A stretch of 64,000 bases of DNA from Candidatus Woesearchaeota archaeon (GCA_964578845.1 CAZOEF010000003.1:5009-69008), one strand, 5' to 3'. Shown: positions 16,370-54,281, numbered from the stretch's first letter. Notes: generated by a model not told the origin, from the letters alone. Numbers and translations are program-made.

Positions 16370-16379
16370 ACTAATATAA

Positions 16380-16446: not shown

Positions 16447-16466
16447 TTTTTTAGATAAAACCGGGG

Positions 16467-16487: not shown

Positions 16488-16523
16488 TGGTGAATCAAGT
16501 ATATATTTGTTTCTTAAAATATA

Positions 16524-19055: not shown

Positions 19056-19084
19056 TTTTTACCAGTCTCATCTACGTTCAATTT

Positions 19085-19561: not shown

Positions 19562-19755
19562 TTTTTATACCTCTTTTTTTTAGCATAGAAATCTACTTTA
19601 ACAGGTTTCCTCACAATTTTTGTTGCCCTGAATTTAGCAACACTGCCATCAGATCTTTTAAATTTTACAGTGACAGGTTTCTTTATTGGCTTTGTTGCCC
19701 AAAAATTCACCCTTCTTCTACGCACCATTTTCTCCTTCTCCATCAGCAAATTCAT
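19555..19755 (-). CDS. Small polybasic protein with an internal duplication, upstream partner of the PIN gene
   Basis: ATKPIKKPVTVKFKR and ATKIVRKPVKVDFYAKKK form an internal repeat. It overlaps the PIN start by 7 nt. The true start may be an internal Met (MVRRRR at about 19725), because the track start overlaps the DUF4145-like gene. Confidence 0.4.
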   Translation of the reverse strand: MNLLMEKEKMVRRRRVNFWATKPIKKPVTVKFKRSDGSVAKFRATKIVRKPVKVDFYAKKKRYKKW

Positions 19756-20302: not shown

Positions 20303-20303
20303 C

Positions 20304-37235: not shown

Positions 37236-38240
37236 TTAGATGCCTGGAGCTTGTGTTGCTCCAAAAATGATGTTTCCTGAACAGCTTCCAGCTACACCAG
37301 TAGGTACATAAATTCTCCAGTAAGTAGCATTTGTGTCGTCTAAATAAGGAGCTGCATCATTTAGTCTATAAGGCAAATTAAATCTTCTAACTACATTAGA
37401 ACTAGTAAGATTTGAGTACAGGGATTCAAATTCTGCCGGTGTTAAAGCACTGCTATTCGAGATAGTTAGATTATACTTTTCATAATTTACAGATATATTC
37501 TTTATTGCTCCAAGAGTGCAATTCATGGCCAAACCATCTCCTTGTGTGACTGCGTATCCTTCAAGGCTTAAATTAAGGAATACATTTCCAAAATTAGTGA
37601 CGTTAGCTAGTTGTTCTGATGAAACAAATGTGGCATTCACTTCACCATAATCAATTGAATCAGGCAAGCCTACTGCTAAAAGTGTATTAATAGTAATTAA
37701 GTCGCTGTCCTGATCAGTAAGGCTGACGTTGTCTGTAGCAACCACTGTAGCGTTCCAGGTAGCATTGTTTGCATAATATTCTACATCAAAAGTGCAGGAC
37801 GCATTGACTTCATACTGGTCTCCATAAGCTGTATCAATAAAGCAGGAATTATTAGTATAATGATGGTTATTATCATCTGCATCCCCGTAAGAGGAAGTAA
37901 CAGAATCAAAGAAATGGGCAGTAAAGTTAATTATATCATCTTCGCCATTGAAATCTCTTGCAATTATATTGACAATTACAGGGGTTGTAGCATTTGCAGT
38001 AAGATCTACTCCTGAATCATCATTATTGATCGAAACATTAAGAATTTCTGGTGAAACAGTCCCTACTTCAAGCTGTGTGTTGACAGTCACACTCTCTCCA
38101 ACTATAGCTAAAGCTAGATTAGGGAATAAAGTAAGCACTGCAACAAAGAACAGCACTTCCACAGTTAACAATATAGTTACGAAAAGAGCTTCCTTCTGTC
38201 TTAAAGGATTTCTATTTAAAGTATTATTTTTTTTGTTCAT
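37236..38240 (-). CDS. Secreted or anchored surface protein (334 aa)
   Basis: A polar basic N-region (MNKKNNTLNRNPLRQKE) precedes a roughly 25-residue hydrophobic segment. The protein is N/T/S-rich with many sequons and 4+ Cys. Confidence 0.6.
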   Translation of the reverse strand: MNKKNNTLNRNPLRQKEALFVTILLTVEVLFFVAVLTLFPNLALAIVGESVTVNTQLEVGTVSPEILNVSINNDDSGVDLTANATTPVIVNIIARDFNGEDDIINFTAHFFDSVTSSYGDADDNNHHYTNNSCFIDTAYGDQYEVNASCTFDVEYYANNATWNATVVATDNVSLTDQDSDLITINTLLAVGLPDSIDYGEVNATFVSSEQLANVTNFGNVFLNLSLEGYAVTQGDGLAMNCTLGAIKNISVNYEKYNLTISNSSALTPAEFESLYSNLTSSNVVRRFNLPYRLNDAAPYLDDTNATYWRIYVPTGVAGSCSGNIIFGATQAPGI

Positions 38241-38243
38241 TTT

Positions 38244-38969
38244 TTAAGTGAGTTCTACATAGAGATAATATGGAGTAGCTCCTGTGAAAGTTGCTGCTCC
38301 ATTCTCTGGGACTATCATCTGGAAATCATAAGTTCCCCCATCAAATCCTGTAGCTCCTTCCTCCATTATAGTTGCATATATTAAATTGCTTCCAGTTGAC
38401 TCATACAAGGCTATTTCTTCAAATGATAGATCCTGTGAAGCTCCGTTGACATAAGTGTTAAGTGTAGGGCATGAATCTGAGCCTATACTTGATGTCCCTA
38501 CAAAAAATGCATCGTGAGTGCCGCTCTGTCCGTTATTGAACGTTGCAGTAATATTATCTGAAAATCCTGTATGATTCATCCTGGTGTTCTCAAGTTCTAA
38601 AGTGGTCGCATTAGAGCAGTCTATATTAGTCCAGGAAATGCTTGAGCTATTTCGCGTAGCATATATCTCACCGCTTACTGAAGCAAGGCTCCAGTCATAA
38701 ATAGCAGATCCTGAAGCATCTTCAAGGCTAAATGTACCTGTTACCTCTCCTACAAATGCTTTCCACCTTGTATTTATAGTATCTGCTGTGATATTCAAAG
38801 TAGCTATGTATCCTCCTGAAATGTTTAGTTCATAAGCTGAACTTGTCCCTCCAGTCTCATTAGCCAAGACTGTAACACTGCTAGGCCCTTCAGGTGCAGC
38901 TAAAACAAAAGTAAACATAAACCCTGTCGCCACAAGCCCTAATATAATGATTAACAATGATTTAATCAT
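38244..38969 (-). CDS. Secreted protein (241 aa), paralog of 39011..39808
   Basis: It has a Sec-type signal, MIKSLLIIILGLVATGFMFTFVLA. It shares the blocks W..F.G.VTG, Y.WSLAS..GE.Y, ISW.NI.C, HD.FF, FEE..LYE, HDFQM.V and Y...VEL with the neighbouring gene. Confidence 0.7.
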   Translation of the reverse strand: MIKSLLIIILGLVATGFMFTFVLAAPEGPSSVTVLANETGGTSSAYELNISGGYIATLNITADTINTRWKAFVGEVTGTFSLEDASGSAIYDWSLASVSGEIYATRNSSSISWTNIDCSNATTLELENTRMNHTGFSDNITATFNNGQSGTHDAFFVGTSSIGSDSCPTLNTYVNGASQDLSFEEIALYESTGSNLIYATIMEEGATGFDGGTYDFQMIVPENGAATFTGATPYYLYVELT

Positions 38970-39010
38970 TACTTTCCCATTTGAAGTTTTTTTTTAAATT
39001 TCATCTTTAG

Positions 39011-39808
39011 TTACTCTAGCTCTACAAAGAAGAAATACGTTGTAGGTGCTGTATCAGTTCCGTGCCCATTATCTAAGACTAGCATCTGGAAATCATGAGT
39101 TGCCTGGTCAAAGCCTCCTAAATCTTCTTCTAGTAATGAAGCGAACACGACACTTGATGAAGTAGGCTCGTATAATAATACTTCCTCAAATTCCTGGTCT
39201 ACTCCTGATCCTGTATCACCATATACTCTAGTGCTTAGGCACTCATCAGCAGAGAACTGCTGGCTTGCAGTGAAAAATTCATCATGATCTTGCAATGAAA
39301 ATGTTTCATTTATTCCATCAACATCATCAAAAGCTATTCCAAATGTTTCTTCTAATACTGAAAGGTTAGTTCCTCCTAAGTTTGTTTCTCCAGGAGTCTC
39401 AGCTCCTCCAGCACCATTTGCCGTAAAATTAAAGCATTGGATATTTGACCAAGATATAGAGGTGTTAGTAGAGGAATAAACTTCTCCCTGTGGACTTGCT
39501 AAGCTCCAATTATAGAATACATCATCATTTGCATTTGCCAACTGAATAACTCCAGTGACATTTCCGTAGAAACCTTGCCAGGTCTGTGTTGTAGTATAAC
39601 CAAAAATATCTACATTAGTGACATTTCCAGCAGTAGCATTAGCGCTTCCTGCTGTATCAGCTAGTGCACCCTCAGATGTTCCAACAGTGGTTTCTGCTCC
39701 AGAAGGTCCAACTGCACTAGTCAAAGGAAAAAATGAAAATGCTAAAGCTAAAACAGCTAAAGCTATTAATGCTTTATTAAAAAATACTATGTTTGTTTCT
39801 CTTGTCAA
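39011..39808 (-). CDS. Secreted protein (265 aa), paralog of 38244..38969
   Basis: It starts at TTG, preceded by AAAGGTGAT (Shine-Dalgarno-like). The signal peptide ends in LTSA. The shared blocks are listed under 38244..38969. Confidence 0.7.
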   Translation of the reverse strand: MTRETNIVFFNKALIALAVLALAFSFFPLTSAVGPSGAETTVGTSEGALADTAGSANATAGNVTNVDIFGYTTTQTWQGFYGNVTGVIQLANANDDVFYNWSLASPQGEVYSSTNTSISWSNIQCFNFTANGAGGAETPGETNLGGTNLSVLEETFGIAFDDVDGINETFSLQDHDEFFTASQQFSADECLSTRVYGDTGSGVDQEFEEVLLYEPTSSSVVFASLLEEDLGGFDQATHDFQMLVLDNGHGTDTAPTTYFFFVELE

Positions 39809-39940: not shown

Positions 39941-42862
39941 TTAATTTATAAAGTTATGGGTATTATTATTTAGTAATGACATATAAGGAACCATTTTTTC
40001 ATAGATCTTTTTCCTGAATTTCCCAGGCATCCTATTATAGATTGACTGAATATCTGAATAGATCATCATGGCAATATCTGTCCTTCCTTGTCTAAGTGCC
40101 TCCAGACATTCATTAATAAGGCCTTGCACTTCTTTTTTATCTACTTTAACTCTTAAAGAGCTTATTCTCTTATACAGGAAAGGCTTTACTCTTCCATCAG
40201 CAGATGAATATAATTCTGCCATTCTGACATAATTGTCCTTTGCTCTGGACAATTCTCCAATAGATAAAGCGTTTTCGCTGTCTTTTATTAAGCTTAATGT
40301 TGCCAAGACTTCTGGCCTTGATTTATATTGGTTTGTTTTATAGCCCCTGAAAGCATAGAAACCTCCTGCTAAAAAGACTAAAATAAAGACTAGCCATCCT
40401 ATAAATATCCCTAAACTTCCTGAATTGCCAGCTCCAGGCAATATTGCAAAAGCTGAGATAGGGCTGAACCCTTTCTCAGGAGCATCTTCATGAAATGCGA
40501 AAGTGTCTGAAGATCTGACTTCAGCCAGGTCGATTATTTTATCCATATAATAGACTATTTTTCCATCTATTAAGTCAGAGCTCTTTATTTCATAAATATT
40601 GTTTTCATCTATCGCATTATTTATATTAAGAAAGCTCACTTCATCTAAGTCTTTAGAGATTTCTTCAGGAATTACTTCCAGGTAAGTATCAGGAATTTCT
40701 CCATGGGAATCCAATGTCTTTCTTACTAAGGTGATCTTTTCCTCCCTGCCAGCATATTCTATTTCGACATGCTTGATATTGACTGAGATGCTTAATGAAT
40801 TCTGAAGCTGGGCATTATAGTCTATCAAATTACTTTCTGCTGCCTTGCTTAGGATTATATTTTTATTATCCAGGAATTTCCTGATTACATCGCGGATATT
40901 TGAGTCTATCTTGTTCTTGATGAATTCATCGGTAGCCAGCACCTCCACATTTTCAGGAATGTTTTCAGCTATCTCATCAAGTTCGCTATTTATCTCATCT
41001 CTTCTTTCATCTCTTTTATCTTCATCAGTGATATGGTCCAGGTTATGTTGTAAATCAAGCTTTATTTGTGAAAGTTTCTTCTTATAGTATAGCGCATCAT
41101 CAACTAGTCCTAAGTCATCCATTGCTTCCTGTTCTTCTTTGCCGTAATTTCCTGAATCAATTAGAAACTCGCTTATTCTGTCAAGCATTTCATCTATTTC
41201 TTCAGCCCTTTCAAAAGTAGTGTTTAATGCTCTGGAAGATGCTTTCAATGAATAAGTTGAGTTATGGTAATTAAAATCCCTATCTTTAGAATCCCTGTTT
41301 CCCTTTGTATCATAACATTCCACTTCCCAGGTATAATCCCCCTCATCAAAATCAACTAATTGGACAATGACTTCTTCATTATTATCTACATCATTATTAA
41401 AAGCATCATAGACAAGCTCCCCTATTGAACTGCTATTGAAGTAAAAAAGATTGAATGTGCAATTGCTTATGTTGCTCACATCATGCGCTTCATAGCTGAA
41501 GTTTATATTATATTCATCCAAAGTGTCTTCATCAGAAGGATAATTTAGCTCTATTGTTGGTCCATCCTCGTCAGTAGTATTTGCCCCTGTTACAGATATT
41601 TCAATTGACTCAGTTAAATTATAATTTCCTGTTTCTCCTAATATCAATCCGCTTAAGCTTGCAGTAAATTCTCCTGAAGAAGAGTATTCATGCGAGAATT
41701 CCTGATAAGGATTCCCATTGAGTTGCTCAAATCCCCCATCCCCGAATATTATGATGCCGCTTAGGCTATACTCATCAAGCCCTGTGACATTGACATTGAA
41801 AGTGATTTCTTCATCTTGGATTATTTGATTATCACTGGAAGTGAATGCTATTATTGGGGAATAGTCCATCATTATATCAAAATTATTGGACTCTGAATCA
41901 TTGATTGAAGAATTGATTTCATCCTTGCAAAATATTTTCCAGTTATAGTTCCCATTGTCCAATTCAAGTGTAGAGATATTCAATTCTCCCATGTTAATTC
42001 CATCGATCTGTTCCTTCACTGTCTCACCTTTTTTAAGATCGAATGAGCAATCAACATTAGACAGATTAGAATAAGAGACATTAAAATCAAAATCCAGGTC
42101 TGCTGCATTAGTTATCTCGCCCTGGGGGTAATCACCCATCTCTATGCTCAAACTGGTCAAATTAGAATTCTCTGTGCCTTGTGTTAGATTGATGATTATA
42201 TCAAAGTTTTGCACTGAAAGATGCGGCGCAATAAATGATATCCTGTCATTAAGGCCGTTATCATCCTGGTCGTAAAGAGTAAGGTCGAAGGATCTGTCGT
42301 CAGTTATATCAATAATGCCATCTTCCTTTATCCAGAGAACTTTTAGTTCTTCATCTGTCTCTATTATATCAGCATATACTGTGACAGGGCTATCAAAATG
42401 TTCATCACTGGAGACCGTAACCCTTTTCTTCCATAGATCACTATCTTCATCAACTGATTCGCTCTTGAATATCTCAACTTCTTTTCCTTCTTCCATCTTG
42501 GCCTCTATTTCTTTTTTCCCGTTCTTGACAATAACGTAATCTACTAGTTTGCCCGAATCACTATCTTCACTGTTTTCCATTGATTCATCAACAGTAAATG
42601 AGGCATCTATGTCTATTTTGTCAGAGATTTTATCTAATTCAACATCTATCTTATCAGAAATTTTGTCTAGTTCTGGTTCAATATTAGTAAGTTTAGCATC
42701 AGATGCTCCGGAAGCTTCATCAAGAACTTTTTCTTCATTAAGAGGTAATTCCTTTGCTAAATCCTCTGCATAAGTTGCAAAGCCTGCGATAATGATGAAT
42801 GCTGATAGGACAATAATTAATAAAACTAATCTTGGCTTGTCCAGACTCACCTTTTTAAGCAT
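39941..42862 (-). CDS. Large (973 aa) surface protein with signal peptide, PKD/Ig-like modules, helical stalk, C-terminal TM helix and cytoplasmic helical tail
   Basis: The signal is LVLLIIVLSAFIIIAGFATYA. The PKD-like segment is IIFGDGGFEQL...SHEYSSSGEFTASL. The acidic helical segment begins near AEEIDEMLDRISEF. The TM helix is IGWLVFILVFLAGGFYAF. The tail contains LINECLEALRQGRTDIAMMIYSDIQSIYNRMP. Confidence 0.75.
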   Translation of the reverse strand: MLKKVSLDKPRLVLLIIVLSAFIIIAGFATYAEDLAKELPLNEEKVLDEASGASDAKLTNIEPELDKISDKIDVELDKISDKIDIDASFTVDESMENSEDSDSGKLVDYVIVKNGKKEIEAKMEEGKEVEIFKSESVDEDSDLWKKRVTVSSDEHFDSPVTVYADIIETDEELKVLWIKEDGIIDITDDRSFDLTLYDQDDNGLNDRISFIAPHLSVQNFDIIINLTQGTENSNLTSLSIEMGDYPQGEITNAADLDFDFNVSYSNLSNVDCSFDLKKGETVKEQIDGINMGELNISTLELDNGNYNWKIFCKDEINSSINDSESNNFDIMMDYSPIIAFTSSDNQIIQDEEITFNVNVTGLDEYSLSGIIIFGDGGFEQLNGNPYQEFSHEYSSSGEFTASLSGLILGETGNYNLTESIEISVTGANTTDEDGPTIELNYPSDEDTLDEYNINFSYEAHDVSNISNCTFNLFYFNSSSIGELVYDAFNNDVDNNEEVIVQLVDFDEGDYTWEVECYDTKGNRDSKDRDFNYHNSTYSLKASSRALNTTFERAEEIDEMLDRISEFLIDSGNYGKEEQEAMDDLGLVDDALYYKKKLSQIKLDLQHNLDHITDEDKRDERRDEINSELDEIAENIPENVEVLATDEFIKNKIDSNIRDVIRKFLDNKNIILSKAAESNLIDYNAQLQNSLSISVNIKHVEIEYAGREEKITLVRKTLDSHGEIPDTYLEVIPEEISKDLDEVSFLNINNAIDENNIYEIKSSDLIDGKIVYYMDKIIDLAEVRSSDTFAFHEDAPEKGFSPISAFAILPGAGNSGSLGIFIGWLVFILVFLAGGFYAFRGYKTNQYKSRPEVLATLSLIKDSENALSIGELSRAKDNYVRMAELYSSADGRVKPFLYKRISSLRVKVDKKEVQGLINECLEALRQGRTDIAMMIYSDIQSIYNRMPGKFRKKIYEKMVPYMSLLNNNTHNFIN

Positions 42863-43067
42863 TTTTCACCTCTTTTTCAAGTAGAGAGTCCGTCTTTAAA
42901 AAACCTTCATTGTATATCCAGAGAGTTATTATTTTGCTAACTACGTCTTGTTCATTGCTTCCTAATACACCTATAAGTTTTTGGATAATTTCCTTCTGCC
43001 TTATCGTCACTGTCCCCCTGACAACAGTGGTTTCTGATTTAGAACTTTTTAATATTTTTTTAGGCAT
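42855..43067 (-). CDS. Small (70 aa) protein, possibly RHH-like DNA-binding, coupled to the 973-aa gene
   Basis: It overlaps the downstream start by 8 nt. GTVTIRQKEIIQKLIGVLGSNEQDVVSKII could form a strand-helix-helix, but the fold assignment is weak. Confidence 0.35.
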   Translation of the reverse strand: MPKKILKSSKSETTVVRGTVTIRQKEIIQKLIGVLGSNEQDVVSKIITLWIYNEGFLKTDSLLEKEVKNA

Positions 43068-43148: not shown

Positions 43149-45254
43149 ATGAAAAGAGGTAATCTCCCGATTTGTTTAGTCGTGACATTTATGTTTTTAC
43201 TAACTATCTCAATTGTAAATTCTCAGGACGTTCCAACAATATTGGAAGTGCCATTTCAAGAAGGGGCTCCCGAGCTGATCAAAGTAATTCCTGATCAATC
43301 CTGGCCAGTGAATACTAACAATACCGAGGCATTTGATCTTGATGAATACTTTAGGGATAATGAGACCTCAAACCTGACTTATACTGCTACATTTGTTTCT
43401 AATATTAATATATCAATAGAAGAGTCATTAAATTCAACAAATGGAACTATGCATCTTGTTTCCTTCTATCCAGAAACTGATTTTACTGGAACAAGACTGG
43501 TAAGATTTATCGCATCAGATGGAACATTCCAGACTCAAAGCAACATAGTGACTTTGAACGTAGTGAACGACACAGAGCCGCCCCAATGGAGTTTTCCTGC
43601 AAAAGATAAGCTGACAATATTACAGAATGACTTTATCAATTTCACTACCCTCTGGACTGATAATGTTCAGCTGAGCAATTATACATTTTCTATAAATCAA
43701 GGATCTGGATGGAGCAATTCGTCGCGATCATTTTCTGGAACTATGGCAACTTCAGCTGAAAGGGTGCAGATAAGTGCGCCTGGAGGGACAATAGTGCAAT
43801 GGATGTTCTTCGCATCAGATACTTCCGGAAATATGAATGCCACAGATATCCAGAGTTTCACTGTCACTGCTACAAACACTCCTCCTACAACAGGCAATGT
43901 GGGAAATGAGGACGAGGATGATGATTCACCTAGTCCTGCTCCTGTCGAGGAAACGCCTAGAAATGAAACCCAGGATTTTTCTGTTTCAGCAGACTCATTC
44001 AGGGTTGAAGCTAAACAAGGAAGCAGGTCGACAATATCACTAAAAGTCACTAACACAGGTGTTGGGACACTTAATTTCACTATTGGGATAACTGGGCTGG
44101 ATATGTTTGATATATCTATTAGTGAAGATGAATTCTCCTTGATTGGAGGAGATTCAAAAACATTGATAATTGAAATATCTACTGATCGGTTCACCACTCC
44201 TGATTTATATTTTGGAGATATGCTTATCAGTGCCGCTGACAAGAACGTTACCCTTCCGATAATAGTAGAGGTAAAGCCGATAATAACAAGTATTGATCTC
44301 AAGACAGAAGTTATTGAAGAGGAAATCCTTCCTGGAGAGGACATAAATGCAAATATTACTTTGACTAATCTCGAAGACATTGAGGAAAAAGAGATCGAAT
44401 TATATTATGCGATTATTGATTATTCAGGAAATACATTAGACTCAAATCAGGAAACTCTGAATTTTTCAAGCAGGTCACTCGGGATGATCAAAAATTTGAC
44501 AATTCCTTCAGATGCCACCCAAGGAGAATATATTTTCCTGACAAGAGTGGTCTTTGATGATGAAATTAATATTGACTCTGACACTTTCCTTGTTGGAGCA
44601 AGGTTTGATCTTGCTGCATTTCTAAAAGCCAATCTGATTTTAGTTTTGATTGCATTGTTCTTGGTATCTGCTTTAGTATTTATCCTTAGATACAGGCAGA
44701 ATAAGCAAAGGCTAAAGCTATTGAACTTGTACTTATTGATGAACCAGATGAAATCCTTGCTTGAGGAAAACAAGATAGATGAGGCTATTAATATCTATAT
44801 AAAGATAAAAGGAGTTTATGGTGAGCCTCTGTCTCAGACAGCTATATATAACAAAGAAGAACTGAAAAAATCAGTTGAGGAGCTTGCAAAAAAACTGGAT
44901 CTTCTGGCAATAAATCAGCCCCCTCAGCCCCAAGAGAATGCAGAGAAACCTGAGCAGACAGCAGGCTCTAAAAATGAAACTAAGACAGAAAATCCAGAGT
45001 CAACTCCTGCAGAAACAGATCAATCACAGGCAGCAGGCTCTGAAGCTAAAATTCAGGCAGCAGAAAATCCAGAGTCAACTCCTGCAGATGAACCTCAGAC
45101 AGAGAAAACAATAGAGCAAAGTGAGCCCCCTGAAGCTAAATCTACTCAGGCAAATAAGAAAGCTAGACCAAAAAGACCAAAATCCGTCAAGCAAAAAAGA
45201 GCAAAAAAAGTAACGAAATCTAAAAAAGTAAAGAAATCTAAAAAAAGAAGATGA
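43149..45254 (+). CDS. Surface protein (701 aa) with signal peptide, Ig/CARDB-like modules, C-terminal TM helix, helical tail, acidic P/T/E repeat and polybasic terminus
   Basis: The signal is LPICLVVTFMFLLTISIVNS. The TM helix is LILVLIALFLVSALVFIL. The tail contains MNQMKSLLEENKIDEAINIYIKIKGVYGEPL. ENPESTPA occurs twice. The protein ends in KKVTKSKKVKKSKKRR. Confidence 0.75.
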   Translation: MKRGNLPICLVVTFMFLLTISIVNSQDVPTILEVPFQEGAPELIKVIPDQSWPVNTNNTEAFDLDEYFRDNETSNLTYTATFVSNINISIEESLNSTNGTMHLVSFYPETDFTGTRLVRFIASDGTFQTQSNIVTLNVVNDTEPPQWSFPAKDKLTILQNDFINFTTLWTDNVQLSNYTFSINQGSGWSNSSRSFSGTMATSAERVQISAPGGTIVQWMFFASDTSGNMNATDIQSFTVTATNTPPTTGNVGNEDEDDDSPSPAPVEETPRNETQDFSVSADSFRVEAKQGSRSTISLKVTNTGVGTLNFTIGITGLDMFDISISEDEFSLIGGDSKTLIIEISTDRFTTPDLYFGDMLISAADKNVTLPIIVEVKPIITSIDLKTEVIEEEILPGEDINANITLTNLEDIEEKEIELYYAIIDYSGNTLDSNQETLNFSSRSLGMIKNLTIPSDATQGEYIFLTRVVFDDEINIDSDTFLVGARFDLAAFLKANLILVLIALFLVSALVFILRYRQNKQRLKLLNLYLLMNQMKSLLEENKIDEAINIYIKIKGVYGEPLSQTAIYNKEELKKSVEELAKKLDLLAINQPPQPQENAEKPEQTAGSKNETKTENPESTPAETDQSQAAGSEAKIQAAENPESTPADEPQTEKTIEQSEPPEAKSTQANKKARPKRPKSVKQKRAKKVTKSKKVKKSKKRR
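44988..45088 (+). repeat. 75-bp tandem duplication inside the 701-aa gene tail
   Basis: The 26-nt string gaaaatccagagtcaactcctgcaga occurs exactly at 44988..45013 and 45063..45088. The period is 75 nt, which is 25 aa. Confidence 0.85.
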
Positions 45255-47440
45255 TAAAAAATAAATTCCTGGTTGCATTAGTATTCTTAGTTATAGTGGT
45301 TTCTCCTGCCCTTGCTCAAAGCGCTTACGGTGATCCTATTGATGCTGAATCATATACTATTTCAAGAAGCTTTGTAGACAGGGAGCTTGCTTTAGGGGAT
45401 ATATTCATGGATTCTTTTTCAATAGAGAACAAGCAAGGGTCTCAGATGTCTGTGACTCTTTCAACAACAGGAGAGATATCTGATTTGATAGAATTTGATG
45501 TTGCAGGAGTGATAATTGATGCGCAAAATAAGTCAGACATTGATTTTAATATAATTGCTAGAGAACTCGGAACATTCACTGGAACTATAGTTGTCTCAGG
45601 AGATATAAATGAAGAGATTCCTGTAAATTTGACTATCCTGGAACAGTCTAATTATCAAAAATTTATTTTGAATATAGAGCCATTGAAAAAAACTTTCACT
45701 TTGGATGAAAGGATAGAAGTAAAGATAAACCTTCGCCAAATACTCTCTGAAGCCCTGCAGAATGTTTCATTTGTCTACACTCTTGGAAAATTGAATGCTG
45801 AAAATTTCCAGATACAGTTAAGTCCTGAAGAGACAGAGAGCGAAGTATTTGTAAGATTGAGCCCGCAGGAAGAAGTCAGGGATATTGAGGGTTCTTTCCA
45901 GATAACTAAAAAATTTCAAATACCTGAAGAGGTGACTGAAGGGGATTATGTACTGAATGTTGTAGCCAATTACAAGAATGAATCTGTCCTGGCAAGCACA
46001 ACATTCACATTGACAATTCCCTTCCTTCAAATAAGATTATTTGGGCTGATACCTGTCTGGCTAATAATCACAATCGTCTCTGTCCTTGCTTTTGGGACTA
46101 TTGCTTTCTTGATAATACGCAGAGAGATAAAGAAAAGGAAAAAATACAAAATGCAGCTTGTCACTAACACGTTGCCAAAAAAGGGAGAGAGAAATCTATG
46201 GTTCGGGAAAGTTGCCGAGAAGAACATCCCTGCTTATTATGAGATGGATAAATTGACAACACACGCTGTTGTGGCAGGAGCTACCGGAGGGGGAAAGAGC
46301 ATTGCTGCGCAGGTCATAATAGAAGAGGCTTTATTGAAGAACATTGCTGTAATAGTCTTCGATCCAACAGCTCAGTGGTCAGGAATGCTTAGAAAAGGGG
46401 ACGATAAGAAAATGTTTTCTTTCTATCCAAAATTCGGCCTTAAGCCATCTGACGCCAGGGCTTTCCCTGGGAATGTTCGGCAGGTTATGAATGAAAGGCA
46501 GGTCATAGACATAGAAAAATACACTCAGCCAGGGCATATCCAGATATTCACATTGAATAAATTAGATCCATCAAAAATGGATGTGTTCGTCGCAAGTGTT
46601 ATTGCATCTATCTTCAGGTCAGATCCTAAGGAGCACCCTGGACTAAAGACCTTATTAGTATTTGATGAAGTCCATAGATTGCTTCCTAAATTCGGGGGTT
46701 CAGGCGAAGGATTCCTTCAGATTGAAAGAGCTTGCAGGGAATTTAGAAAATGGGGATTGGGAGTGATGTTGGTATCTCAGGTATTATCAGACTTCGTCGG
46801 AGAGATCAAGGCTAACATCAACACAGAAGTCCAGATGAGGACAAGGGATGAAGCTGATCTCAACAGGTTAAAAACTAAATACGGAGAAGAGGTCTTGCAA
46901 TCCCTGATCAAAGCATCTGTAGGGGTTGGAATGTTTGTAAATCCATCTTATAACAGAGGTAAGCCTTATTTCATAAATTTCAGGCCCATATTGCACAATA
47001 CTAGAAGATTAAGTGATGAAGTCCTGGAGAAATATAATCAATATGGGGAAGTAATAGATGACCTGGAATACCAGATAGAACAATTAGAAGCTGAAAAAAT
47101 AGATACATTTGACCTTAAGATGGAATTGAAATTAGTCAAGGATAAGCTGATGACTGGCAATTTTACTGTTGTTGATATTTATCTTGAAGGTTTGACTCCT
47201 AGATTTGAGAAGCAGTGGCAATCATTAGGAAAGAAGCCTAAGAAGAAAGAGATAGAACTGATAGATGCTAAGGAAGTTGAAGCTTCCATAAACCAGGCCA
47301 AGAGCGAAAGAGCTAAAATAGAATCTGGTTCAAAAGACAAGAAAGAGGGAAGTGACGAAGCTGATAAGCCTGTGAAAGAAAAGAAAAAATCTCCTAAAAA
47401 GGAAAAGATCAAAAAGCCAAAAGCAAAAAAACATAAATGA
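45251..47440 (+). CDS. Bitopic membrane protein: extracellular N-domain, one TM helix and a cytoplasmic HerA/FtsK-like (DUF87-type) P-loop ATPase
   Basis: The signal is FLVALVFLVIVVSPALA. The TM helix is aa 265-289 (46043..46117). Walker A is GATGGGKS at 46277..46300 and Walker B is LLVFDEVH at 46652..46675. REFRKWGLGVMLVSQ is typical of HerA-like ATPases. A C-terminal coiled coil and a polybasic tail follow. ATGA overlaps link it to the genes on both sides. Confidence 0.75.
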   Translation: MIKNKFLVALVFLVIVVSPALAQSAYGDPIDAESYTISRSFVDRELALGDIFMDSFSIENKQGSQMSVTLSTTGEISDLIEFDVAGVIIDAQNKSDIDFNIIARELGTFTGTIVVSGDINEEIPVNLTILEQSNYQKFILNIEPLKKTFTLDERIEVKINLRQILSEALQNVSFVYTLGKLNAENFQIQLSPEETESEVFVRLSPQEEVRDIEGSFQITKKFQIPEEVTEGDYVLNVVANYKNESVLASTTFTLTIPFLQIRLFGLIPVWLIITIVSVLAFGTIAFLIIRREIKKRKKYKMQLVTNTLPKKGERNLWFGKVAEKNIPAYYEMDKLTTHAVVAGATGGGKSIAAQVIIEEALLKNIAVIVFDPTAQWSGMLRKGDDKKMFSFYPKFGLKPSDARAFPGNVRQVMNERQVIDIEKYTQPGHIQIFTLNKLDPSKMDVFVASVIASIFRSDPKEHPGLKTLLVFDEVHRLLPKFGGSGEGFLQIERACREFRKWGLGVMLVSQVLSDFVGEIKANINTEVQMRTRDEADLNRLKTKYGEEVLQSLIKASVGVGMFVNPSYNRGKPYFINFRPILHNTRRLSDEVLEKYNQYGEVIDDLEYQIEQLEAEKIDTFDLKMELKLVKDKLMTGNFTVVDIYLEGLTPRFEKQWQSLGKKPKKKEIELIDAKEVEASINQAKSERAKIESGSKDKKEGSDEADKPVKEKKKSPKKEKIKKPKAKKHK

Positions 47441-48006
47441 AAAAGACAAGGAAAAATCATGCTAAGAAAAAGACTAAGCCAGCTAAGAAAATTGTAGAGA
47501 AAGCTGAAGAGACTTATGTCCCTTACAAGTCAGCCATAGCTAAAAAAGAAGAGAAGCCTGTTGCAAAAAAATACAAGACTTTTCTCTCAGAAAAGAAATT
47601 GAACCATTTGCTTAAGATTGGAGATGTAGAGGAATTCTATTATTTGGCTAATATTCTGAAAGAGAATGAGATTGAAGCGTTTATTGAGCACTATAAACTA
47701 AAAAAGCCGAACCCTAAAGAGAATAGAATTTCTGCGATGATCCATAGGGCAAAAACTCCTTCTGAGCTGCTTGACATTGTAAAATCAGAAAGTGCAAATC
47801 ATTTGAAAGAAAGATACGATGATCTGAAGAAATTGATCAGTGAAAAAAGGAAAAAAGGCAAGGACGTTTATGTTCCAGACATAAAGCTGATGTCAGTGCC
47901 TTTAAAGATAAAGATTTATTTGGCAACCATGGAGAAAAAAGACTTTTACAAAGTAAAGAAAATGCTTGATGATATTCAGGCAGAGCTTGAAAAAATTATT
48001 CCTTAA
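47437..48006 (+). CDS. Polybasic helical protein (189 aa), last gene of the ATPase operon
   Basis: It starts MKKTRKNHAKKKTKPAKK. An ATGA overlap links it to the ATPase gene. I recognised no family. Confidence 0.5.
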   Translation: MKKTRKNHAKKKTKPAKKIVEKAEETYVPYKSAIAKKEEKPVAKKYKTFLSEKKLNHLLKIGDVEEFYYLANILKENEIEAFIEHYKLKKPNPKENRISAMIHRAKTPSELLDIVKSESANHLKERYDDLKKLISEKRKKGKDVYVPDIKLMSVPLKIKIYLATMEKKDFYKVKKMLDDIQAELEKIIP

Positions 48007-50701
48007 AATATTGTATCTTGTTCTTGAAATGTATTCCTATAGCGGTCAGTACTAGTACTCCGAATGTTACTGCCATTATCATTCCCCAATCTGTTAGATT
48101 TAATGGGACAGTGCCAAAGAATGTGCTTAGTGGTGTATATATTACTGATAACTGCAATGCCATTGAAGCTGCCACAGCAAGAACCAGGTATTTATTGCTA
48201 AATGGGCCTAGTTTATATTCTGATCTTATAGCCTGCAATCTTACTAATTCCATGACTATGATTGCAGTAAACGCTAAGGTCTGGATTTTCATGATCATTT
48301 CATTGTGTTCTAGAATGGAATAATGGACCATTCCCCAATAGAATAATCCCAGGACTGCTAAAGTTATCAAGCTGGAAACATACAGGATATTGAACATCAT
48401 TGACCTGTTCATTATTCCCTCCTTTGCCTTTCTAGGAGGTTTCTTCATTAGGTCCTTAGAATTATTATCAACTCCTAATGCTAATGCAGGCAGTCCATCA
48501 GTGACTAAATTCAGCCATAGAAGCATTACTGCTGTCATGGGCAATGGCCATCCTAATATGACTGCAAGGAATATTATCAATACTTCTGCAAGATTTGATG
48601 ATAATAGATAATTGACAAACTTTGTTATGTTCTCATAAACTCCTCTTCCTTCCTCGACAGAATTGACAATGCTTGCAAAATTATCATCTTGCAGCACCAT
48701 ATCGCTTGCTTCTTTCGCTACATCAGTCCCCTTAATCCCCATTGCTATTCCGATATCTGCTTTCTTCAATGCAGGGGCATCATTCACTCCGTCTCCAGTC
48801 ATTGCGACAATTACATTCCCCTTGTCTTGTAACAGGTTGACTATCAGCATCTTATGGCTAGGGTCTACTCTTGAGAAAATAGATATTGTTTCCAGGGATT
48901 TTCTTTGTTCATCTTCAGGCATGCTTGCAAAATCAGTCCCATTTATCGATGTGCCTTCAATGCCTATTTCTTTGGCTATTGCTTCAGCTGTATGCTGGTT
49001 ATCCCCTGTTATCATTATTACTCTTATGCCTGCTTCCTTGCATCTTTGCAAAGCTTCCTTTACTTCTGGCCTTGGAGGATCTATCATTCCCTGCAAGCCG
49101 ACAAAGATCAGGTCTTCCTCTATTTTTCCCTTTGAATACTGTTTATAAGCAAATCCTAACACCCTTAAGGCTTGGCTGGAAAATATCTCATTTTTTTCAA
49201 GTATCTCTTTCTTCAAACTTGGAGTTAATCTTATGACTCTATTATTTATTAGAACCTTATTGCACCTTTCCAGAACTTGCTCAGGGGCGCCTTTAGTGAA
49301 GACAAGTTCCTTGTTCGTCTTAGGGTCCTTGTTTATTGTGCTCATCATCTTTCTCTCAGAATCAAAAGGCTCTTCTTTCGTTCTTGCCCAGGATTTCCTT
49401 AATTCATTATAATCTATTCCTGCTTTCTCAGCACTTATTATCAAAGCTGTTTCTGTTGGGTCTCCAGTGCCAATGATCTTATGGCCCTCAACATTAAGAG
49501 TTGAATTATTGCAAAGCGCCCCTATCTTGAATAAAAATAAGTCCTTTTCATTTAAGTCTAATCCGTCGCACTTTATTTCCCCATTTAATTCATGGCATTC
49601 CCCTCCGATTTCTATTTCCTTCCCATTTACAAACGCTTTCCTGACTGTCATCTCGTTCATTGTCAATGTTCCTGTCTTATCAGAACATATTACAGTTGTT
49701 TCTCCAAGAGTTTCGACAGATGGAAGTTTCCTTATCAGGGCATTGCGTTTTATCATTCTTCTCACCCCTAATGCAAGCGAGATCGTGACTATTGCAGGTA
49801 GCCCTTCAGGAACAGCTGCAACAGCTAACGCTACAGCAGTCAATAGCCACTCCTTTGCATCCAGAAGAAAGTCAATATAATTGCCTGCCAATAAAAAGTT
49901 TATACTGCCGTCCTTTAAGATTCCTGATATGAATATAATTATGCAGATCCCTATAGTAGCCATGCCAATCCAATGCCCTAACCGCTCAAGTTTTTTCTGC
50001 AAAGGGGTCGCTTCATCCTCTACTTTTGTGATCATCCCTGCAATCTTGCCTATCTCAGTTTTCATCCCGATGGATGTTACAACTGCTTTTCCTCTTCCTC
50101 TAGTTATTGCTGTTCCTGAAAATACCATGTTTTTCCTTTCAGCAAGAGGAACTATTCCATTAAGCGCTCCATCTGTTTTCGAGATAGGGTTTGATTCCCC
50201 TGTTAAGGAAGACTCTAAGGTCTGCAGGTTTATGTTCTCAATTATCCTTGCATCAGCAGAGATCTTATCGCCTTCTTCTAGCACAAGTATATCTCCTGGA
50301 ACAAGGTCCTTAGAGTCGATCATGACTATCTTGCCTCCTCGAAGAACTCGGGATTTAGGCGAGGATAATTTCTTTAATGCCTCGATTGATTTCTCTGCGC
50401 GGTATTCTTGTATGAACCCAAAAAAAGCATTAAATAATAATATGGCCAGGATGACTGCTGAATCAATGTATTCTTTTGCTAAAATCGATACTACAACTGC
50501 AAAAAGAAGGATATAAATTATAAAGCTTTTAAATTGGTTTAGAAAAAGGATTATAGGATTAAGTCTTTTTTTGCTCTCAAGCTCATTAAGTCCGAAAAGC
50601 TGCCTTCTATTAGTAACCTTATGCCCGTCTAACCCTTCCTCTTTATTTACCTTAAAATGTTCCAGTACATCCTTGGAATCTAGATTGTAAAAATTATTCA
50701 T
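47996..50701 (-). CDS. P-type (P2, Ca2+/cation-transporting) ATPase
   Basis: The motifs are TGES, the phosphorylation site CSDKTGTLT, PEGLPAIVTISLALG (M4) and the hinge TGDGVNDAPAL. The protein is 901 aa with about 10 TM helices. Confidence 0.9.
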   Translation of the reverse strand: MNNFYNLDSKDVLEHFKVNKEEGLDGHKVTNRRQLFGLNELESKKRLNPIILFLNQFKSFIIYILLFAVVVSILAKEYIDSAVILAILLFNAFFGFIQEYRAEKSIEALKKLSSPKSRVLRGGKIVMIDSKDLVPGDILVLEEGDKISADARIIENINLQTLESSLTGESNPISKTDGALNGIVPLAERKNMVFSGTAITRGRGKAVVTSIGMKTEIGKIAGMITKVEDEATPLQKKLERLGHWIGMATIGICIIIFISGILKDGSINFLLAGNYIDFLLDAKEWLLTAVALAVAAVPEGLPAIVTISLALGVRRMIKRNALIRKLPSVETLGETTVICSDKTGTLTMNEMTVRKAFVNGKEIEIGGECHELNGEIKCDGLDLNEKDLFLFKIGALCNNSTLNVEGHKIIGTGDPTETALIISAEKAGIDYNELRKSWARTKEEPFDSERKMMSTINKDPKTNKELVFTKGAPEQVLERCNKVLINNRVIRLTPSLKKEILEKNEIFSSQALRVLGFAYKQYSKGKIEEDLIFVGLQGMIDPPRPEVKEALQRCKEAGIRVIMITGDNQHTAEAIAKEIGIEGTSINGTDFASMPEDEQRKSLETISIFSRVDPSHKMLIVNLLQDKGNVIVAMTGDGVNDAPALKKADIGIAMGIKGTDVAKEASDMVLQDDNFASIVNSVEEGRGVYENITKFVNYLLSSNLAEVLIIFLAVILGWPLPMTAVMLLWLNLVTDGLPALALGVDNNSKDLMKKPPRKAKEGIMNRSMMFNILYVSSLITLAVLGLFYWGMVHYSILEHNEMIMKIQTLAFTAIIVMELVRLQAIRSEYKLGPFSNKYLVLAVAASMALQLSVIYTPLSTFFGTVPLNLTDWGMIMAVTFGVLVLTAIGIHFKNKIQYFKE

Positions 50702-50780
50702 ATCACCCTCTTAATAGAATAAAAATCTATGAAATATAAATCTATAGGTAAGTTATGTTGACAATGGATACTTCATTTTC

Positions 50781-50889
50781 GCGTTGCCCGTAAATCCATT
50801 CAGGAAGACAGTTATGCTGCTGATAATGGGTATTCCATTACATTTTCTTCTCTCAGGGCGTTGCCGCAAATCCATTCAGGAAGACAGTT
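50781..50889 (-). repeat. Duplicated about 32-bp gene-end segment (gcgttgcc[c]g[t/c]aaatccattcaggaagacagtt)
   Basis: One copy (50858..50889) encodes NCLPEWICGNA inside the 217-aa ORF. The other copy (50781..50813) spans and follows its stop codon and would encode NCLPEWIYGQ. Confidence 0.8.
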
Positions 50890-51465
50890 TAACCTAGTGC
50901 TTTCTAATGAGTATGGAGGTAAATGCCACTGCCCATTATTGTAATGCAATAATCTCATCCCGGAACGGTCATCACTTGAGTAACTTAGGCTGTTTAACCG
51001 TTCAATAGCTTCATCCCCGTCTGTTATTTTCCAGGGATTTTCTAAATAAGGTGTTATTTTTCCATTTGCTACATATCCCAATGCTCCGAATGGCACTATT
51101 AGAGGTGTACTAAGCCTGAAAAATTCTGCCTGGGTTTTTAATCTATCAGCTATTTCCCTGTTAGGATAACGTGTATCAAATATCACTGCCCCATAAATTC
51201 CTTCATGCTCCTTAGAAATTAGGCCTCTATTGTTCAATTCATCCATTTCATTAAAAGTTGGAAGCCTTAATCCATAAGACCTTAGTTCATTATCCTGGAC
51301 AAGATTAGAAAGAAACGTGGAAGATCCACTAGGCGGGACTAATTTATCAAGCCATCCAGCACGTGGTTTTAAAGCATAATGGAACTCATGGCTAGATATA
51401 CCTAAAAGTACAATTTCATTCACATCCCTCAGTATATTGGGCCTTTCCCACACTGCCATGGCCAT
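50812..51465 (-). CDS. Hypothetical protein (217 aa), paralog of 51518..52252
   Basis: It shares a similar layout with its neighbour: PLIVPFGALGYV versus PLIIPLRDLAYQ, and EWICGNA versus DWACGKA. I recognised no family. Confidence 0.5.
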   Translation of the reverse strand: MAMAVWERPNILRDVNEIVLLGISSHEFHYALKPRAGWLDKLVPPSGSSTFLSNLVQDNELRSYGLRLPTFNEMDELNNRGLISKEHEGIYGAVIFDTRYPNREIADRLKTQAEFFRLSTPLIVPFGALGYVANGKITPYLENPWKITDGDEAIERLNSLSYSSDDRSGMRLLHYNNGQWHLPPYSLESTRLNCLPEWICGNALREENVMEYPLSAA

Positions 51466-51517
51466 AATAAACCTAATGATTTGTTCTTATTAATTTCTTG
51501 TAGTATAAACGCCACAA

Positions 51518-52252
51518 CTATACAAGGAGTTCTATTCTTTGCCTGTATAATTCCACAACTTCATCACACTTATTCTCAACTAGTTTAGCATAAGCCTCTA
51601 ATAGCTCTCTTTTTGTTGCCTTCCCGCAAGCCCAGTCAAATGTGCTGAATGGATCTGTCAAGATCCTCCATCCTACATCTGTTCCATTAAATCCTGCAAG
51701 CCTGTAAAGTCCTGATGAAAGGGTTATTCCTGAAAGGCGCATTGCCTCTTCTCCATCAAAGATTTCAGTAGGATGCTCTTTTAAGGATATTTCATCTGAT
51801 TGATAGGCTAAATCTCTTAAGGGAATTATTAAGGGAGGTCTAAAACCGAGAGCTTGTGCCTGCTTGATAAGCTTTACAGAGATCTGGTTATTTTGACAAT
51901 GGCCTTCTGCTATGCCTAATCCATATTCCCTGCATAATTGATGGTTAGAATAAGATTCTTTCATCACCACTCCCATCTCAAACATTCCAGGAGTCCATAA
52001 TCCTCTCGGCCTTAAGACATTAATATCGAAATTTAATGCTGTGAAGAAATTGAATCCTTCTAAAATCCCTGTGTTTTCGTTGATTTGTATCTCCTTGTGT
52101 CTATTTCCTGAAAATTCCCTGCTCTGTTCATAAAAATCCATGATCCTCTCTTTTCCAAGCAAGGCAACATAAGAAAAACTACCCATTCCAAGATCCTCAA
52201 GAACAAATATGTCTCTGGCGTCATCCAGCACGTTAGAATCTCTATGGGCCAT
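51518..52252 (-). CDS. Hypothetical protein (244 aa), paralog of 50812..51465
   Basis: The shared layout is described under 50812..51465. Confidence 0.5.
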   Translation of the reverse strand: MAHRDSNVLDDARDIFVLEDLGMGSFSYVALLGKERIMDFYEQSREFSGNRHKEIQINENTGILEGFNFFTALNFDINVLRPRGLWTPGMFEMGVVMKESYSNHQLCREYGLGIAEGHCQNNQISVKLIKQAQALGFRPPLIIPLRDLAYQSDEISLKEHPTEIFDGEEAMRLSGITLSSGLYRLAGFNGTDVGWRILTDPFSTFDWACGKATKRELLEAYAKLVENKCDEVVELYRQRIELLV

Positions 52253-52296
52253 TTTAAAAAAAAGATAATTTATATTTTAATGATGTGTTGTACTAA

Positions 52297-52563
52297 TTAG
52301 GACAAGTCAAGATGGTGCTTATACATCAGGGCAACATCTTTATCTTCAAGATTATTGATTATTTGGTCACGTATTTCGTCAGAAGTGACGAATGATTTTC
52401 CCTTTATCCATGAAGTCACTTTTCGGGTGACCTTGCTAGCTATTTCTTCTGCCTTCTTTTCGCTATAATGGCAGTTTAAAGCAGCTGCATAGCACGAAGC
52501 ATAAACTTTTTTCTCATCGTAATGTTCATTAAACCCTCTTCTCTTGACCACGTGTTTTTCCAT
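52297..52563 (-). CDS. Stand-alone ATP-cone domain protein
   Basis: The 88-aa protein has VVKRRGFNEHYDEKKVYASCYAAAL...VTSDEIRDQIINNL, which matches the ATP-cone pattern. Confidence 0.6.
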   Translation of the reverse strand: MEKHVVKRRGFNEHYDEKKVYASCYAAALNCHYSEKKAEEIASKVTRKVTSWIKGKSFVTSDEIRDQIINNLEDKDVALMYKHHLDLS

Positions 52564-52580
52564 CTTTTAATTACTTCTCC

Positions 52581-53288
52581 TTAGTTTAAATTTATTGTCC
52601 CGTTTGCTATTAATATTAGCAATAACCCTAGTCCTAGTAATATCAATCCAGTTACTAGTCTCATGTACGCTTTGTTCATCTGTTTCCATTTCTGTATATT
52701 CTGCACCTTTGCTCCAAAGAACACTAAAAGTAATATTACTACTAAAGGCATTACAAAGATGATATTATAAAAAATAAGTAGTATGAATGCTGTGAGGTTA
52801 AAGTTTTGGGACAACAGCAATGTGATTGCTAAATATGGCCCTCCAGTGCATGGAAGTTCAACAGATGCAACAAAAATGCCTAGGAATACGCACGTCCCTA
52901 TCGAAACCTTTTTCATTTTCTCTTTTATTTTTTCCGCATACTTTGGGGAGATTGCTAAAGAGATCCCTTGCCCATACCAGAAATAATCTTTTATCTCCAA
53001 AACACCTGCAAAAACAACAAGCATCCCTACCGCTATAGATATATACTCAGCCCAGACTATAGGTATAGCAGAAAGGAAAGTGACTAATCCAAGCCCAAAG
53101 GCAAAATATGTCAGGAAGACAGCAAATATATACATAAATCCTATCTTTATCATCTCATTTTTTCTTTTGGCTACGACCAGTGTCGATATCAATAATATAA
53201 GGACACCTATAGCGCAAGGATTAATCGAATCTACTATTGCTGTGGCAATAACTGTTGCCAACGTCGGTAAAGCTATTTCTACTGCCAT
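52581..53288 (-). CDS. CcdA/DsbD-family thiol-disulfide transfer membrane protein
   Basis: It has six TM helices. The first motif is DSINPCAIGVLILL and a second Cys motif is LPCTGGPYL. Confidence 0.75.
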   Translation of the reverse strand: MAVEIALPTLATVIATAIVDSINPCAIGVLILLISTLVVAKRKNEMIKIGFMYIFAVFLTYFAFGLGLVTFLSAIPIVWAEYISIAVGMLVVFAGVLEIKDYFWYGQGISLAISPKYAEKIKEKMKKVSIGTCVFLGIFVASVELPCTGGPYLAITLLLSQNFNLTAFILLIFYNIIFVMPLVVILLLVFFGAKVQNIQKWKQMNKAYMRLVTGLILLGLGLLLILIANGTINLN

Positions 53289-54118: not shown

Positions 54119-54281
54119 TCTTCTTTGAAGCCTTCTTTGCAACAGGTTTCTTCTTGCTGCTAGTTGCCTTCTTTTTTGTCCCCTTTTTTACTGGCATACT
54201 ATTCAATAGAATTTATGATTTTTAAAGATTGTTATTTGATAGTTTTTTAATTTTACAGAATTTAAGGGTTTGCGCGTTTTT

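Follow-up and report, generated by a model that had tools for sequence, protein, structure and literature searches.

A predicted membrane-tethered HerA-clade ATPase with an extracellular Ig-like module represents a widespread family at a conserved surface-protein locus of DPANN archaea

What could a motor of the HerA/FtsK type be doing with a large domain on the outside of the cell? This question is raised by a gene in a 64,000-nucleotide stretch of DNA from Candidatus Woesearchaeota archaeon (GCA_964578845.1 CAZOEF010000003.1:5009-69008), hereafter the window. An earlier note on this DNA had read the gene product as a HerA/FtsK-like ATPase fused to a signal peptide, an extracellular beta-rich domain and one transmembrane (TM) helix. 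The open reading frame is intact, starts with ATG and encodes a product of 729 amino acids (aa), and we find that reading frame, hydropathy and an AlphaFold2 model all agree with this description, whose parts are listed with their coordinates in Table 1. A hydropathy scan of the whole protein detects two hydrophobic segments only (aa 1-22 and aa 263-289). The first is signal-like, and a hydrophobic N terminus is also present in homologues. The second corresponds to the TM helix, previously placed at 46043..46117 and mapped here to a marginally longer segment. The AlphaFold2 model, computed with 49 homologues in the alignment, has a mean predicted local distance difference test score (pLDDT) of 82.6 and shows two beta-sandwich, immunoglobulin (Ig)-like domains between these two segments, for which Foldseek returns tandem Ig-like, ASH and RbmA-type folds in the PDB. 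Beyond the TM helix, the model continues with a polybasic linker, in which K298, Y299 and M301 are invariant in the alignment of homologues, and a RecA-fold core whose Walker A and Walker B motifs lie exactly where they had been noted. C-terminal to this core are four long helices (aa 589-704) and a disordered Lys-rich end, the last 129 aa of the protein being 24% K; the K-rich tail proposed earlier is thus present.

As for the motor, every search leads to the HerA clade, and none to the unrelated class of NTPases that would have argued against the initial HerA/FtsK-like assignment. In Pfam, the DUF87/HerA central domain scores 43.6 bits (cut-off 23.2) and HerA_C 29.6 bits (cut-off 22), and FtsK_SpoIIIE (19.3 bits, cut-off 24), AAA_10 and Zot (E 0.0033) all remain below cut-off. 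The NCBIfam models fare in the same way, with CedD at 34 bits (cut-off 600), VirB4_plasma at 25 (590) and CD1110 at 17 (325), and with weak partial HerA and TraD matches also far below cut-off; the VirB4 and TraD model matches are limited to the Walker A region. Significant sequence matches in the PDB, whether the query is this one protein or the profile of its family, are all to HerA proteins (8wiv, 9x1l, 4d2i, 9c1m, 8xau, 8ziq and YjgR), with no FtsK, VirB4 or VirD4 structure among them. Aligned residue by residue to 8wiv and 9x1l over aa 429-560, the protein displays, after Walker B, the HerA-type signature E-x-R/K-K-x-G ... SQ-R/x-P/x-S ... T-x-I/V-x-R. Similarly, the ATPase-domain matches among the top 50 Foldseek hits in the PDB are all HerA structures (8xav, 9x1l, 4d2i and 8zit, E 1e-10 to 1e-9), with no VirB4 or VirD4 in these 50, and PADLOC matches the ATPase to its HerA and mad8 models only. 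Sequence and modeled fold therefore both place the P-loop ATPase in the HerA clade. Since Walker A, Walker B, the RxxR/K stretch (ERACREFRKWG) and the SQ pair are invariant in the 49 homologues, the enzyme looks active.

The window protein shares with archaeal HerA (HerA-NurA, DNA-end resection) and with anti-phage HerA (SIR2-HerA and DUF4297-HerA) the RecA-type core, the Walker motifs and the post-Walker-B signature, its best sequence and fold matches being 8wiv, 9x1l, 4d2i, 8xav and 8zit. It differs from canonical HerA in that the HAS-barrel is replaced by a signal peptide, an Ig-like ectodomain and a TM helix, in having surface proteins as partners instead of a nuclease or effector, and in possessing a family-specific helical C-domain. 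No HAS-barrel was found in the AlphaFold2 model, where the 46 residues from the end of the TM helix (aa 296) to Walker A (aa 343) form two short strands only and leave no room for it. One could nevertheless imagine a defense or repair HerA, that is, a ring serving as a platform for a nuclease or effector, which happens to be anchored in the membrane here. The nearest solved structures and the PADLOC models are indeed anti-phage and repair HerA proteins, and at a distance of 23 kb there is a type I restriction-modification system. However, Pfam, NCBIfam and PADLOC detect no NurA, SIR2 or DUF4297 domain in any neighboring protein, and the conserved locus holds no other such effector; PADLOC matches none of seven neighboring proteins, only the ATPase; every conserved partner is a surface or membrane protein; and the HAS-barrel is missing. 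We thus consider this explanation very unlikely.

On which side of the membrane does the N-terminal domain lie? We judged topology from three independent indicators, namely the hydrophobicity pattern, the positive-inside rule and the number of N-glycosylation sequons. The window protein has no K or R in the 15 aa before the TM helix and eight in the 17 aa after it, and the mean K+R count over 49 family members is 2.2 before versus 6.4 after. In these 49 proteins, NxS/T sequons on the N side number 273, versus 127 expected from composition (a 2.2-fold excess), and on the C side 90, exactly the 90 expected, with a higher density on the N side in every one of the 49. Archaeal N-glycosylation takes place on the outer face of the membrane. 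Because the hydrophobic pattern, the positive-inside rule and the sequon excess restricted to the N side concur, the protein is very probably a type-I single-pass membrane protein with an extracellular N-domain and a cytoplasmic ATPase. None of the indicators favors a cytoplasmic N-domain, and the signal-like N terminus is in line with the orientation first proposed.

An architecture of this kind could be a singular accident, the simplest version being an annotation or assembly artefact in which a surface-protein gene and a herA gene were fused by chance. This is refuted by the occurrence of the same full-length architecture on hundreds of independent contigs, and we attach virtually no probability to it. 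A homology search of 5.8 billion proteins gave 707 matches, the best 64% identical. Among the matches listed, query coverage is 60-100% (above 87% for most), the names are 'DUF87 domain-containing', 'HerA-like', 'ATP-binding' or 'hypothetical' only, and the named sources are Pacearchaeota, Nanoarchaeia, Nanobdellota and 'archaeon' metagenome-assembled genomes (MAGs). An HMMER scan of 1.84 billion cluster representatives (50% identity) retrieved 1281, 596 and 382 sequences at E<=1e-3, 1e-10 and 1e-30, respectively. Many of the best 150 are proteins 1,200-6,253 aa long, whose C-terminal end aligns with residues ~30-720 of the query. A single TM helix at most 120 residues before Walker A is found in 137 of these 150 representatives, a TM helix after Walker A in none, and the region preceding the TM helix reaches up to 5,613 residues, with a median of 787. 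In long members it contains CarboxypepD_reg repeats, Laminin_G_3 (a ConA-like lectin), right-handed beta-helix, CARDB and NPCBM_assoc, all of them adhesin-type modules.

The motifs DPTAQWSG and CREFRKW retrieved 484 stretches encoding a relative from the GTDB species genomes. The best 80 of these 484 loci all belong to DPANN-type MAGs (Pacearchaeota, Woesearchaeota, Nanoarchaeota, Diapherotrites and other archaeal MAGs), save two records labeled 'uncultured Methanosarcinales'. Several genomes have two copies 10-22 kb apart, and the contig from which the window is taken also encodes a long-form paralogue of 1,215 aa. We define the family by an N-terminal extracellular region, a single TM helix no farther than 120 aa ahead of Walker A, the motifs DPTAQWSG and CREFRKW in the HerA core, and a conserved helical C-domain. 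The window protein has every one of these features and is a short-form member of this large family, which is restricted to DPANN archaea and whose ectodomains can be as small as two Ig domains or as large as adhesin-like arrays exceeding 5,000 aa. Most homologues carry an extra conserved C-terminal domain (consensus LTFDNGxMxSSLKEL…F..HVN..KNDI..W), with a weak Pfam match to DUF5752 in one long member; the window protein has its Lys-rich tail in place of this domain. Within the family, identity to the window protein is 31-38% in the ectodomain, 78% in the ATPase core, 75% in the helical C-domain and 34% in the Lys-rich tail. The ectodomain thus appears to evolve much faster than the motor, as expected of an interaction surface.

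The earlier interpretation would have failed had the architecture proved both common and already characterized. We found no sign of a characterization, and common it is only inside DPANN archaea: MAG collections hold hundreds of full-length homologues with their parts in the same order. In a 15-billion-protein collection, the very protein of 729 aa is grouped under a representative of 56 aa and therefore gives no self match, a clustering quirk that may hide other long proteins. In IMG/VR, the family is represented by no more than one weak, partial match of 38 residues. A viral or plasmid origin was considered and ruled out on the strength of this single short match, the PHROGs matches being to generic ATPases. 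Full-text literature searches, whose coverage is incomplete, returned no description of the family beyond its 'DUF87/HerA domain' naming. The papers searched include surveys of archaeal 'dark matter' and membrane proteins (PMC4158269, PMC5898192, PMC6393860) and of DPANN protein families (PMC8204110, PMC6142677), a nomenclature review of type IV secretion systems (T4SS) (PMC12857230) and recent Nanobdellota papers.

Which proteins might the ATPase work with? It is co-transcribed with a 701-aa anchor protein encoded upstream and a 189-aa cytoplasmic protein encoded downstream. The stop codon of the 701-aa gene overlaps the start of the ATPase gene by 4 bases (ATGA) and, since stop and start codons overlap, translational coupling is suggested within the operon. 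That the N-terminal part of the ATPase resembles a module of the 701-aa protein had already been noticed, and the resemblance turns out to be stronger than claimed. BLASTP between the two proteins is marginal (E 0.027); hhalign of the two families gives a probability of 99.1% (E 1e-18) over 260 columns, matching aa 32-313 of the ATPase to aa 274-542 of the 701-aa protein, a region that comprises both Ig-like domains, the TM helix and the juxtamembrane stretch. Because the Ig-Ig-TM module is homologous by profile-profile comparison, the 701-aa protein can be described as a paralogue of the anchor module that is 'motor-less' and carries additional Ig-like domains. The 189-aa protein has no match to a Pfam family, and a paralogous relationship to the C-domain of the ATPase was rejected (hhalign probability 0.07%). 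A homologue is found 3' of the ATPase gene in 34 loci, and a shorter related gene in many long-form loci. All three operon products (ATPase, 701 aa and 189 aa) have polybasic cytoplasmic tails.

Synteny was compared over 85 related loci. In ~45 of them, all with short-form ATPases, the same order recurs, with the 973-aa and 70-aa genes on the minus strand facing away from the 701-type gene and, directly downstream of it, the ATPase gene on the plus strand, followed by the 189-aa gene as an optional last member. In the window, the two divergent operons are separated by an AT-rich spacer of 81 bp. The 70-aa gene, found in 32 loci, encodes a protein with 17 invariant residues (26 loci; …VKGTIT.NQKE.IQKLIG.IGSNEQDVVGKILTLWLYNEGYL) and has a Pfam match in none of the 26 members; it may be a regulator, a strand-helix-helix or ribbon-helix-helix-like fold being plausible by eye. 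The 973-aa gene is found in 53 loci, and its product has one Ig-like domain in common with the 701-aa protein (hhalign 96.2%). That it also shares the ecto-module of the ATPase was rejected (hhalign probability 1.3%). Genes of the 265/241/334 type, which encode secreted sequon-rich proteins, occur in 26 and 18 loci close to ATPase genes of the short or the long form. The long-form ATPases (1,120-1,310 aa) have no separate 701-type gene and have, on their 3' side, a 189-like gene, one more conserved gene and 265/241-type pairs with a winged helix-turn-helix regulator in between, often followed by a 334-type or other membrane protein. In many genomes, short-form and long-form loci adjoin, and the genes between them encode a type-I membrane protein of 560 aa, a SpoIIM-like polytopic protein and a large protein with Ig and CARDB domains, all three of which have counterparts in the window (Table 1). 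Almost no partner at these loci has a family in Pfam, NCBIfam, PHROG or PADLOC.

Because the locus consists mostly of secreted and membrane proteins, the ATPase might be a motor for protein secretion or surface assembly, similar to EssC/EccC or VirB4, which would export neighboring surface proteins, such as those of 265, 241 and 334 aa and the giant Ig/lectin proteins, assemble them, or pull them out of the membrane to build a fiber or coat. The 265-aa and 241-aa proteins are paralogues that are 36% identical, have two invariant Cys and end in a conserved YYFxVELE, and whose family recurs as paralogous pairs beside long-form ATPases. This family has 635 database matches, without an informative name, and no Pfam domain in the 120 matches listed. 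An AlphaFold2 model of the 265-aa protein, built with database homologues (pLDDT 74.8), shows a signal sequence, a disordered stretch of ~30 residues and then a beta-rich domain. Moreover, ATPases of the FtsK/HerA superfamily are generally known to power protein export and pilus biogenesis in type VII secretion systems (T7SS) and T4SS (PMC12857230). However, the neighbors have classical Sec-type signal peptides, and the modeled 265-aa fold matches no known pilin or fiber, its best hits being insignificant in both the PDB (E 2.4) and BFVD (E 0.74) and a profile search against the PDB coming back empty. Donor-strand fiber subunits of the TasA, thread or cannula-like type were rejected for the 265/241-aa proteins, there being no fold match and no comparable ATPase at the Sulfolobus thread locus. 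The archaeal 'predicted secretion system' of Makarova et al. 2015 (arCOG01314, MoxR ATPase, vWA) was also rejected, as it has a different class of ATPase and different partners.

The comparison with individual secretion motors speaks against this explanation too. Like EssC/EccC of T7SS, the window protein would be a membrane-anchored, FtsK-like motor of an envelope machine with single-pass partners. EssC/EccC proteins have two TM helices, three tandem ATPase domains, cytoplasmic FHA domains in Firmicutes and no extracellular domain, whereas the window protein has a single TM helix and a single ATPase domain, with one pair of Walker motifs. VirB4/CedB (T4SS and archaeal Ced DNA import) are of the same superfamily, associated with the membrane and involved in DNA transfer across the archaeal envelope, but the similarity to them consists of weak matches in the Walker A region, no VirB4/VirD4 structure is matched, and no CedA-like polytopic partner or pilin is recognized in the locus. 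Altogether, we judge a secretion or assembly motor to be unlikely.

Two further kinds of ATPase invite comparison. FtsK/SpoIIIE are membrane-anchored hexameric pumps of the same superfamily with a cytoplasmic C-terminal motor, but FtsK has a polytopic anchor of four TM helices, a gamma (KOPS-reading) domain and no large ectodomain, and the window protein, with its one TM helix, scores below the FtsK_SpoIIIE cut-off. In inoviruses, pI/Zot is a P-loop ATPase with one TM helix and an extracytoplasmic domain that touches an outer structure. This makes it the nearest analogue in logic, and there is a weak Pfam Zot match below cut-off. The order is nonetheless reversed in pI/Zot (N-terminal ATPase, C-terminal outer domain), the setting is a phage and the similarity is very low.

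A second alternative dispenses with transport altogether and views the protein as a motorized or regulated adhesin, in which hexamerization and ATP cycling of the ring would cluster, move or switch the attached ectodomains (inside-out) or the ring would signal a bound ligand to the cytoplasm (outside-in). In many paralogues the motor is fused to Laminin_G_3, beta-helix and CARDB arrays, and the fast-evolving ectodomain set against a constrained motor is what an adhesin would lead one to expect. Moreover, each protomer has one TM helix and the core operon encodes single-pass membrane proteins only, with no candidate for a polytopic channel. Two considerations make this alternative doubtful, namely that we know of no precedent for a HerA/FtsK ring passing force through single TM helices, and that the strictly conserved HerA motifs suggest a threaded substrate.

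We tentatively favor, with a probability of about 0.45, a membrane-tethered motor belonging to a surface apparatus, probably a host-contact apparatus, of DPANN archaea. In such an envelope complex, an outer structure would be coupled to a pump that moves a polymer, by default DNA, at cell-cell contact. Members of the FtsK-HerA superfamily assemble as hexamers, and DNA or polypeptide is threaded through the pore at the center of the ring. The window protein would likewise be hexameric, with the ring formed by its cytoplasmic domain lying against the inner face of the membrane, to which six TM helices, each with its short basic linker, would fasten it. The Ig-Ig-TM module of the ATPase and that of its 701-aa paralogue would pack into an envelope-spanning complex, which would tie a fast-evolving binding or contact structure outside the cell to the ATP-driven pump inside. 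A direct coupling between the two, as the earlier note had proposed, is what we infer from the covalent architecture and the gene context. A polymer, with DNA as the default guess, is favored as the substrate because of the HerA/FtsK precedent, the polybasic tails of the three operon products and the metabolic dependence attributed to these archaea (PMC8204110), which are believed to need other cells as a source of nucleotides and lipids.

Several points weigh against this picture. A hexamer would contribute six TM helices only, which is insufficient on its own for a DNA-sized channel, and the core operon encodes no polytopic channel protein. No nuclease, DNA-binding domain or pilin is recognized in the locus by Pfam, PADLOC, PHROG and other scans, and the neighboring secreted proteins, having ordinary Sec-type signals, need no dedicated pump. 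The Lys-rich tail is, as seen above from its identity, not conserved in the family, and Lys-rich tails are common in low-GC DPANN proteomes. Furthermore, the presumed host contact is taken from the lifestyle attributed to DPANN archaea rather than from this genome. A bolder proposal, that of a hitherto unrecognized, DPANN-specific class of envelope machine made of 'motorized adhesins', in which HerA hexamers tethered to Ig/lectin arrays and the paralogous anchor would be the symbiont side of a conduit pulling in host DNA or other polymers where the cells touch, seems improbable to us.

Table 1. Predicted features of the ATPase gene, its conserved locus and the rest of the 64-kb window. Residue numbers refer to the ATPase.
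Feature	Coordinates	Strand	Residues or size	Description
ATPase gene, whole	45251..47440	+	729 aa	Signal peptide, two Ig-like ectodomains, TM, HerA-clade ATPase, helical C-domain, Lys-rich tail
Signal-like N terminus	45251..45316	+	aa 1-22	MIKNKFLVALVFLVIVVSPALA, then Q; Kyte-Doolittle scan and AXA-type cleavage site (ALA before Q, signal-peptidase-I type)
Extracellular stalk	45338..46015	+	aa 30-130 and 138-255	Beta-sandwich (Ig-like) domains; AlphaFold2 model
Single TM helix	46037..46117	+	aa 263-289	By hydropathy; helix at aa 269-296 in AlphaFold2 model
Polybasic juxtamembrane linker	46118..46192	+	aa 290-314	RREIKKRKKYK...
HerA-type RecA-fold ATPase core	46193..46990	+	aa 315-580	
Walker A	46277..46300		aa 343-350	GATGGGKS
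Walker B	46652..46675		aa 468-475	LLVFDEVH, then HerA signature ERACREFRKWGLGVMLVSQ
Conserved cytoplasmic helical domain	47015..47230	+	aa 589-660	
Variable Lys-rich tail	47231..47437	+		Final ~30 residues predicted disordered
Upstream partner	43149..45254	+	701 aa	Type-I membrane protein: signal peptide, Ig-like ectodomains, TM, helical/Lys-rich tail
Downstream partner	47437..48006	+	189 aa	Cytoplasmic; Lys-rich N terminus, helical C-part; overlaps ATPase stop by 4 bases
70-aa gene	42855..43067	-	70 aa	Head of divergent operon, at divergent promoter
973-aa gene	39941..42862	-	973 aa	Type-I membrane protein: PKD/Ig-like ectodomains, C-terminal TM, helical cytoplasmic tail
Secreted sequon-rich proteins	37236..39808	-		Three genes, below
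265-aa gene	39011..39808	-	265 aa	Secreted, sequon-rich
241-aa gene	38244..38969	-	241 aa	Secreted, sequon-rich
334-aa gene	37236..38240	-	334 aa	Secreted, sequon-rich
565-aa gene	54433..56130	-	565 aa	Type-I membrane protein; directly after ATPase operon in relatives
SpoIIM-like gene	56209..57015	+		Polytopic membrane protein; directly after ATPase operon in relatives
Ca2+-ATPase gene	47996..50701	-		SERCA-type P-type Ca2+-ATPase
Ca2+-ATPase and five small genes	47996..54142			Between 189-aa and 565-aa genes
Giant secreted protein	28591..36987	-	2,798 aa	Flanks locus
Giant secreted protein	57012..63902	-	at least 2,296 aa	Flanks locus; may run off window end
Type I restriction-modification system	11611..21830	-		HsdR, HsdS and HsdM, below
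HsdR	11611..14682	-		
HsdS	17204..18412	-		
HsdM	20304..21830	-		
FtsY-like gene	3686..4981	+		Signal-recognition-particle gene
SRP54 gene	5893..7257	+		Signal-recognition-particle gene
Phosphoglycerate mutase-like gene	2293..3549	-		Cofactor-independent type

The rest of the window adds to the description of the locus. In related genomes, the 189-aa and 565-aa genes are directly adjacent, and the Ca2+-ATPase gene and five small genes that lie between them here therefore look like a local insertion or rearrangement. The giant secreted proteins on either side have Laminin_G_3 and bacterial Ig-like domains (Big_13, Big_3_3 and Big_7), no C-terminal TM helix and no ATPase, and are of the same family as the large proteins beside ATPase loci in relatives. 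Outside the window, in ~9 long-form loci, the 265-type pairs are followed by a gene for a membrane protein of 366 aa with ~9 TM helices and no Pfam family (L062:13663-14760 (+)), the only candidate for a polytopic channel or enzyme near these ATPases. Farther from the locus, the window contains the type I restriction-modification system, two genes of the signal-recognition-particle pathway close together and a phosphoglycerate mutase-like gene. No tRNA or Rfam RNA was found across its 64 kb.

The means by which DPANN episymbionts hold on to other cells and obtain material from them are an open question, and to our knowledge no dedicated transport machine has been identified for lineages of the Pacearchaeota/Woesearchaeota type. 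The family described here is a concrete and widespread candidate, in which a conserved ATP-driven motor is joined to fast-evolving adhesin-like outer domains. Its locus is conserved, the surface proteins encoded there are otherwise without annotation, and a genome often has several paralogues. With this family, the FtsK/HerA superfamily would gain a new architecture, in which a single-pass anchor and a large ectodomain replace the HAS-barrel. The two motifs, DPTAQWSG and CREFRKW, make the family findable in any metagenome.

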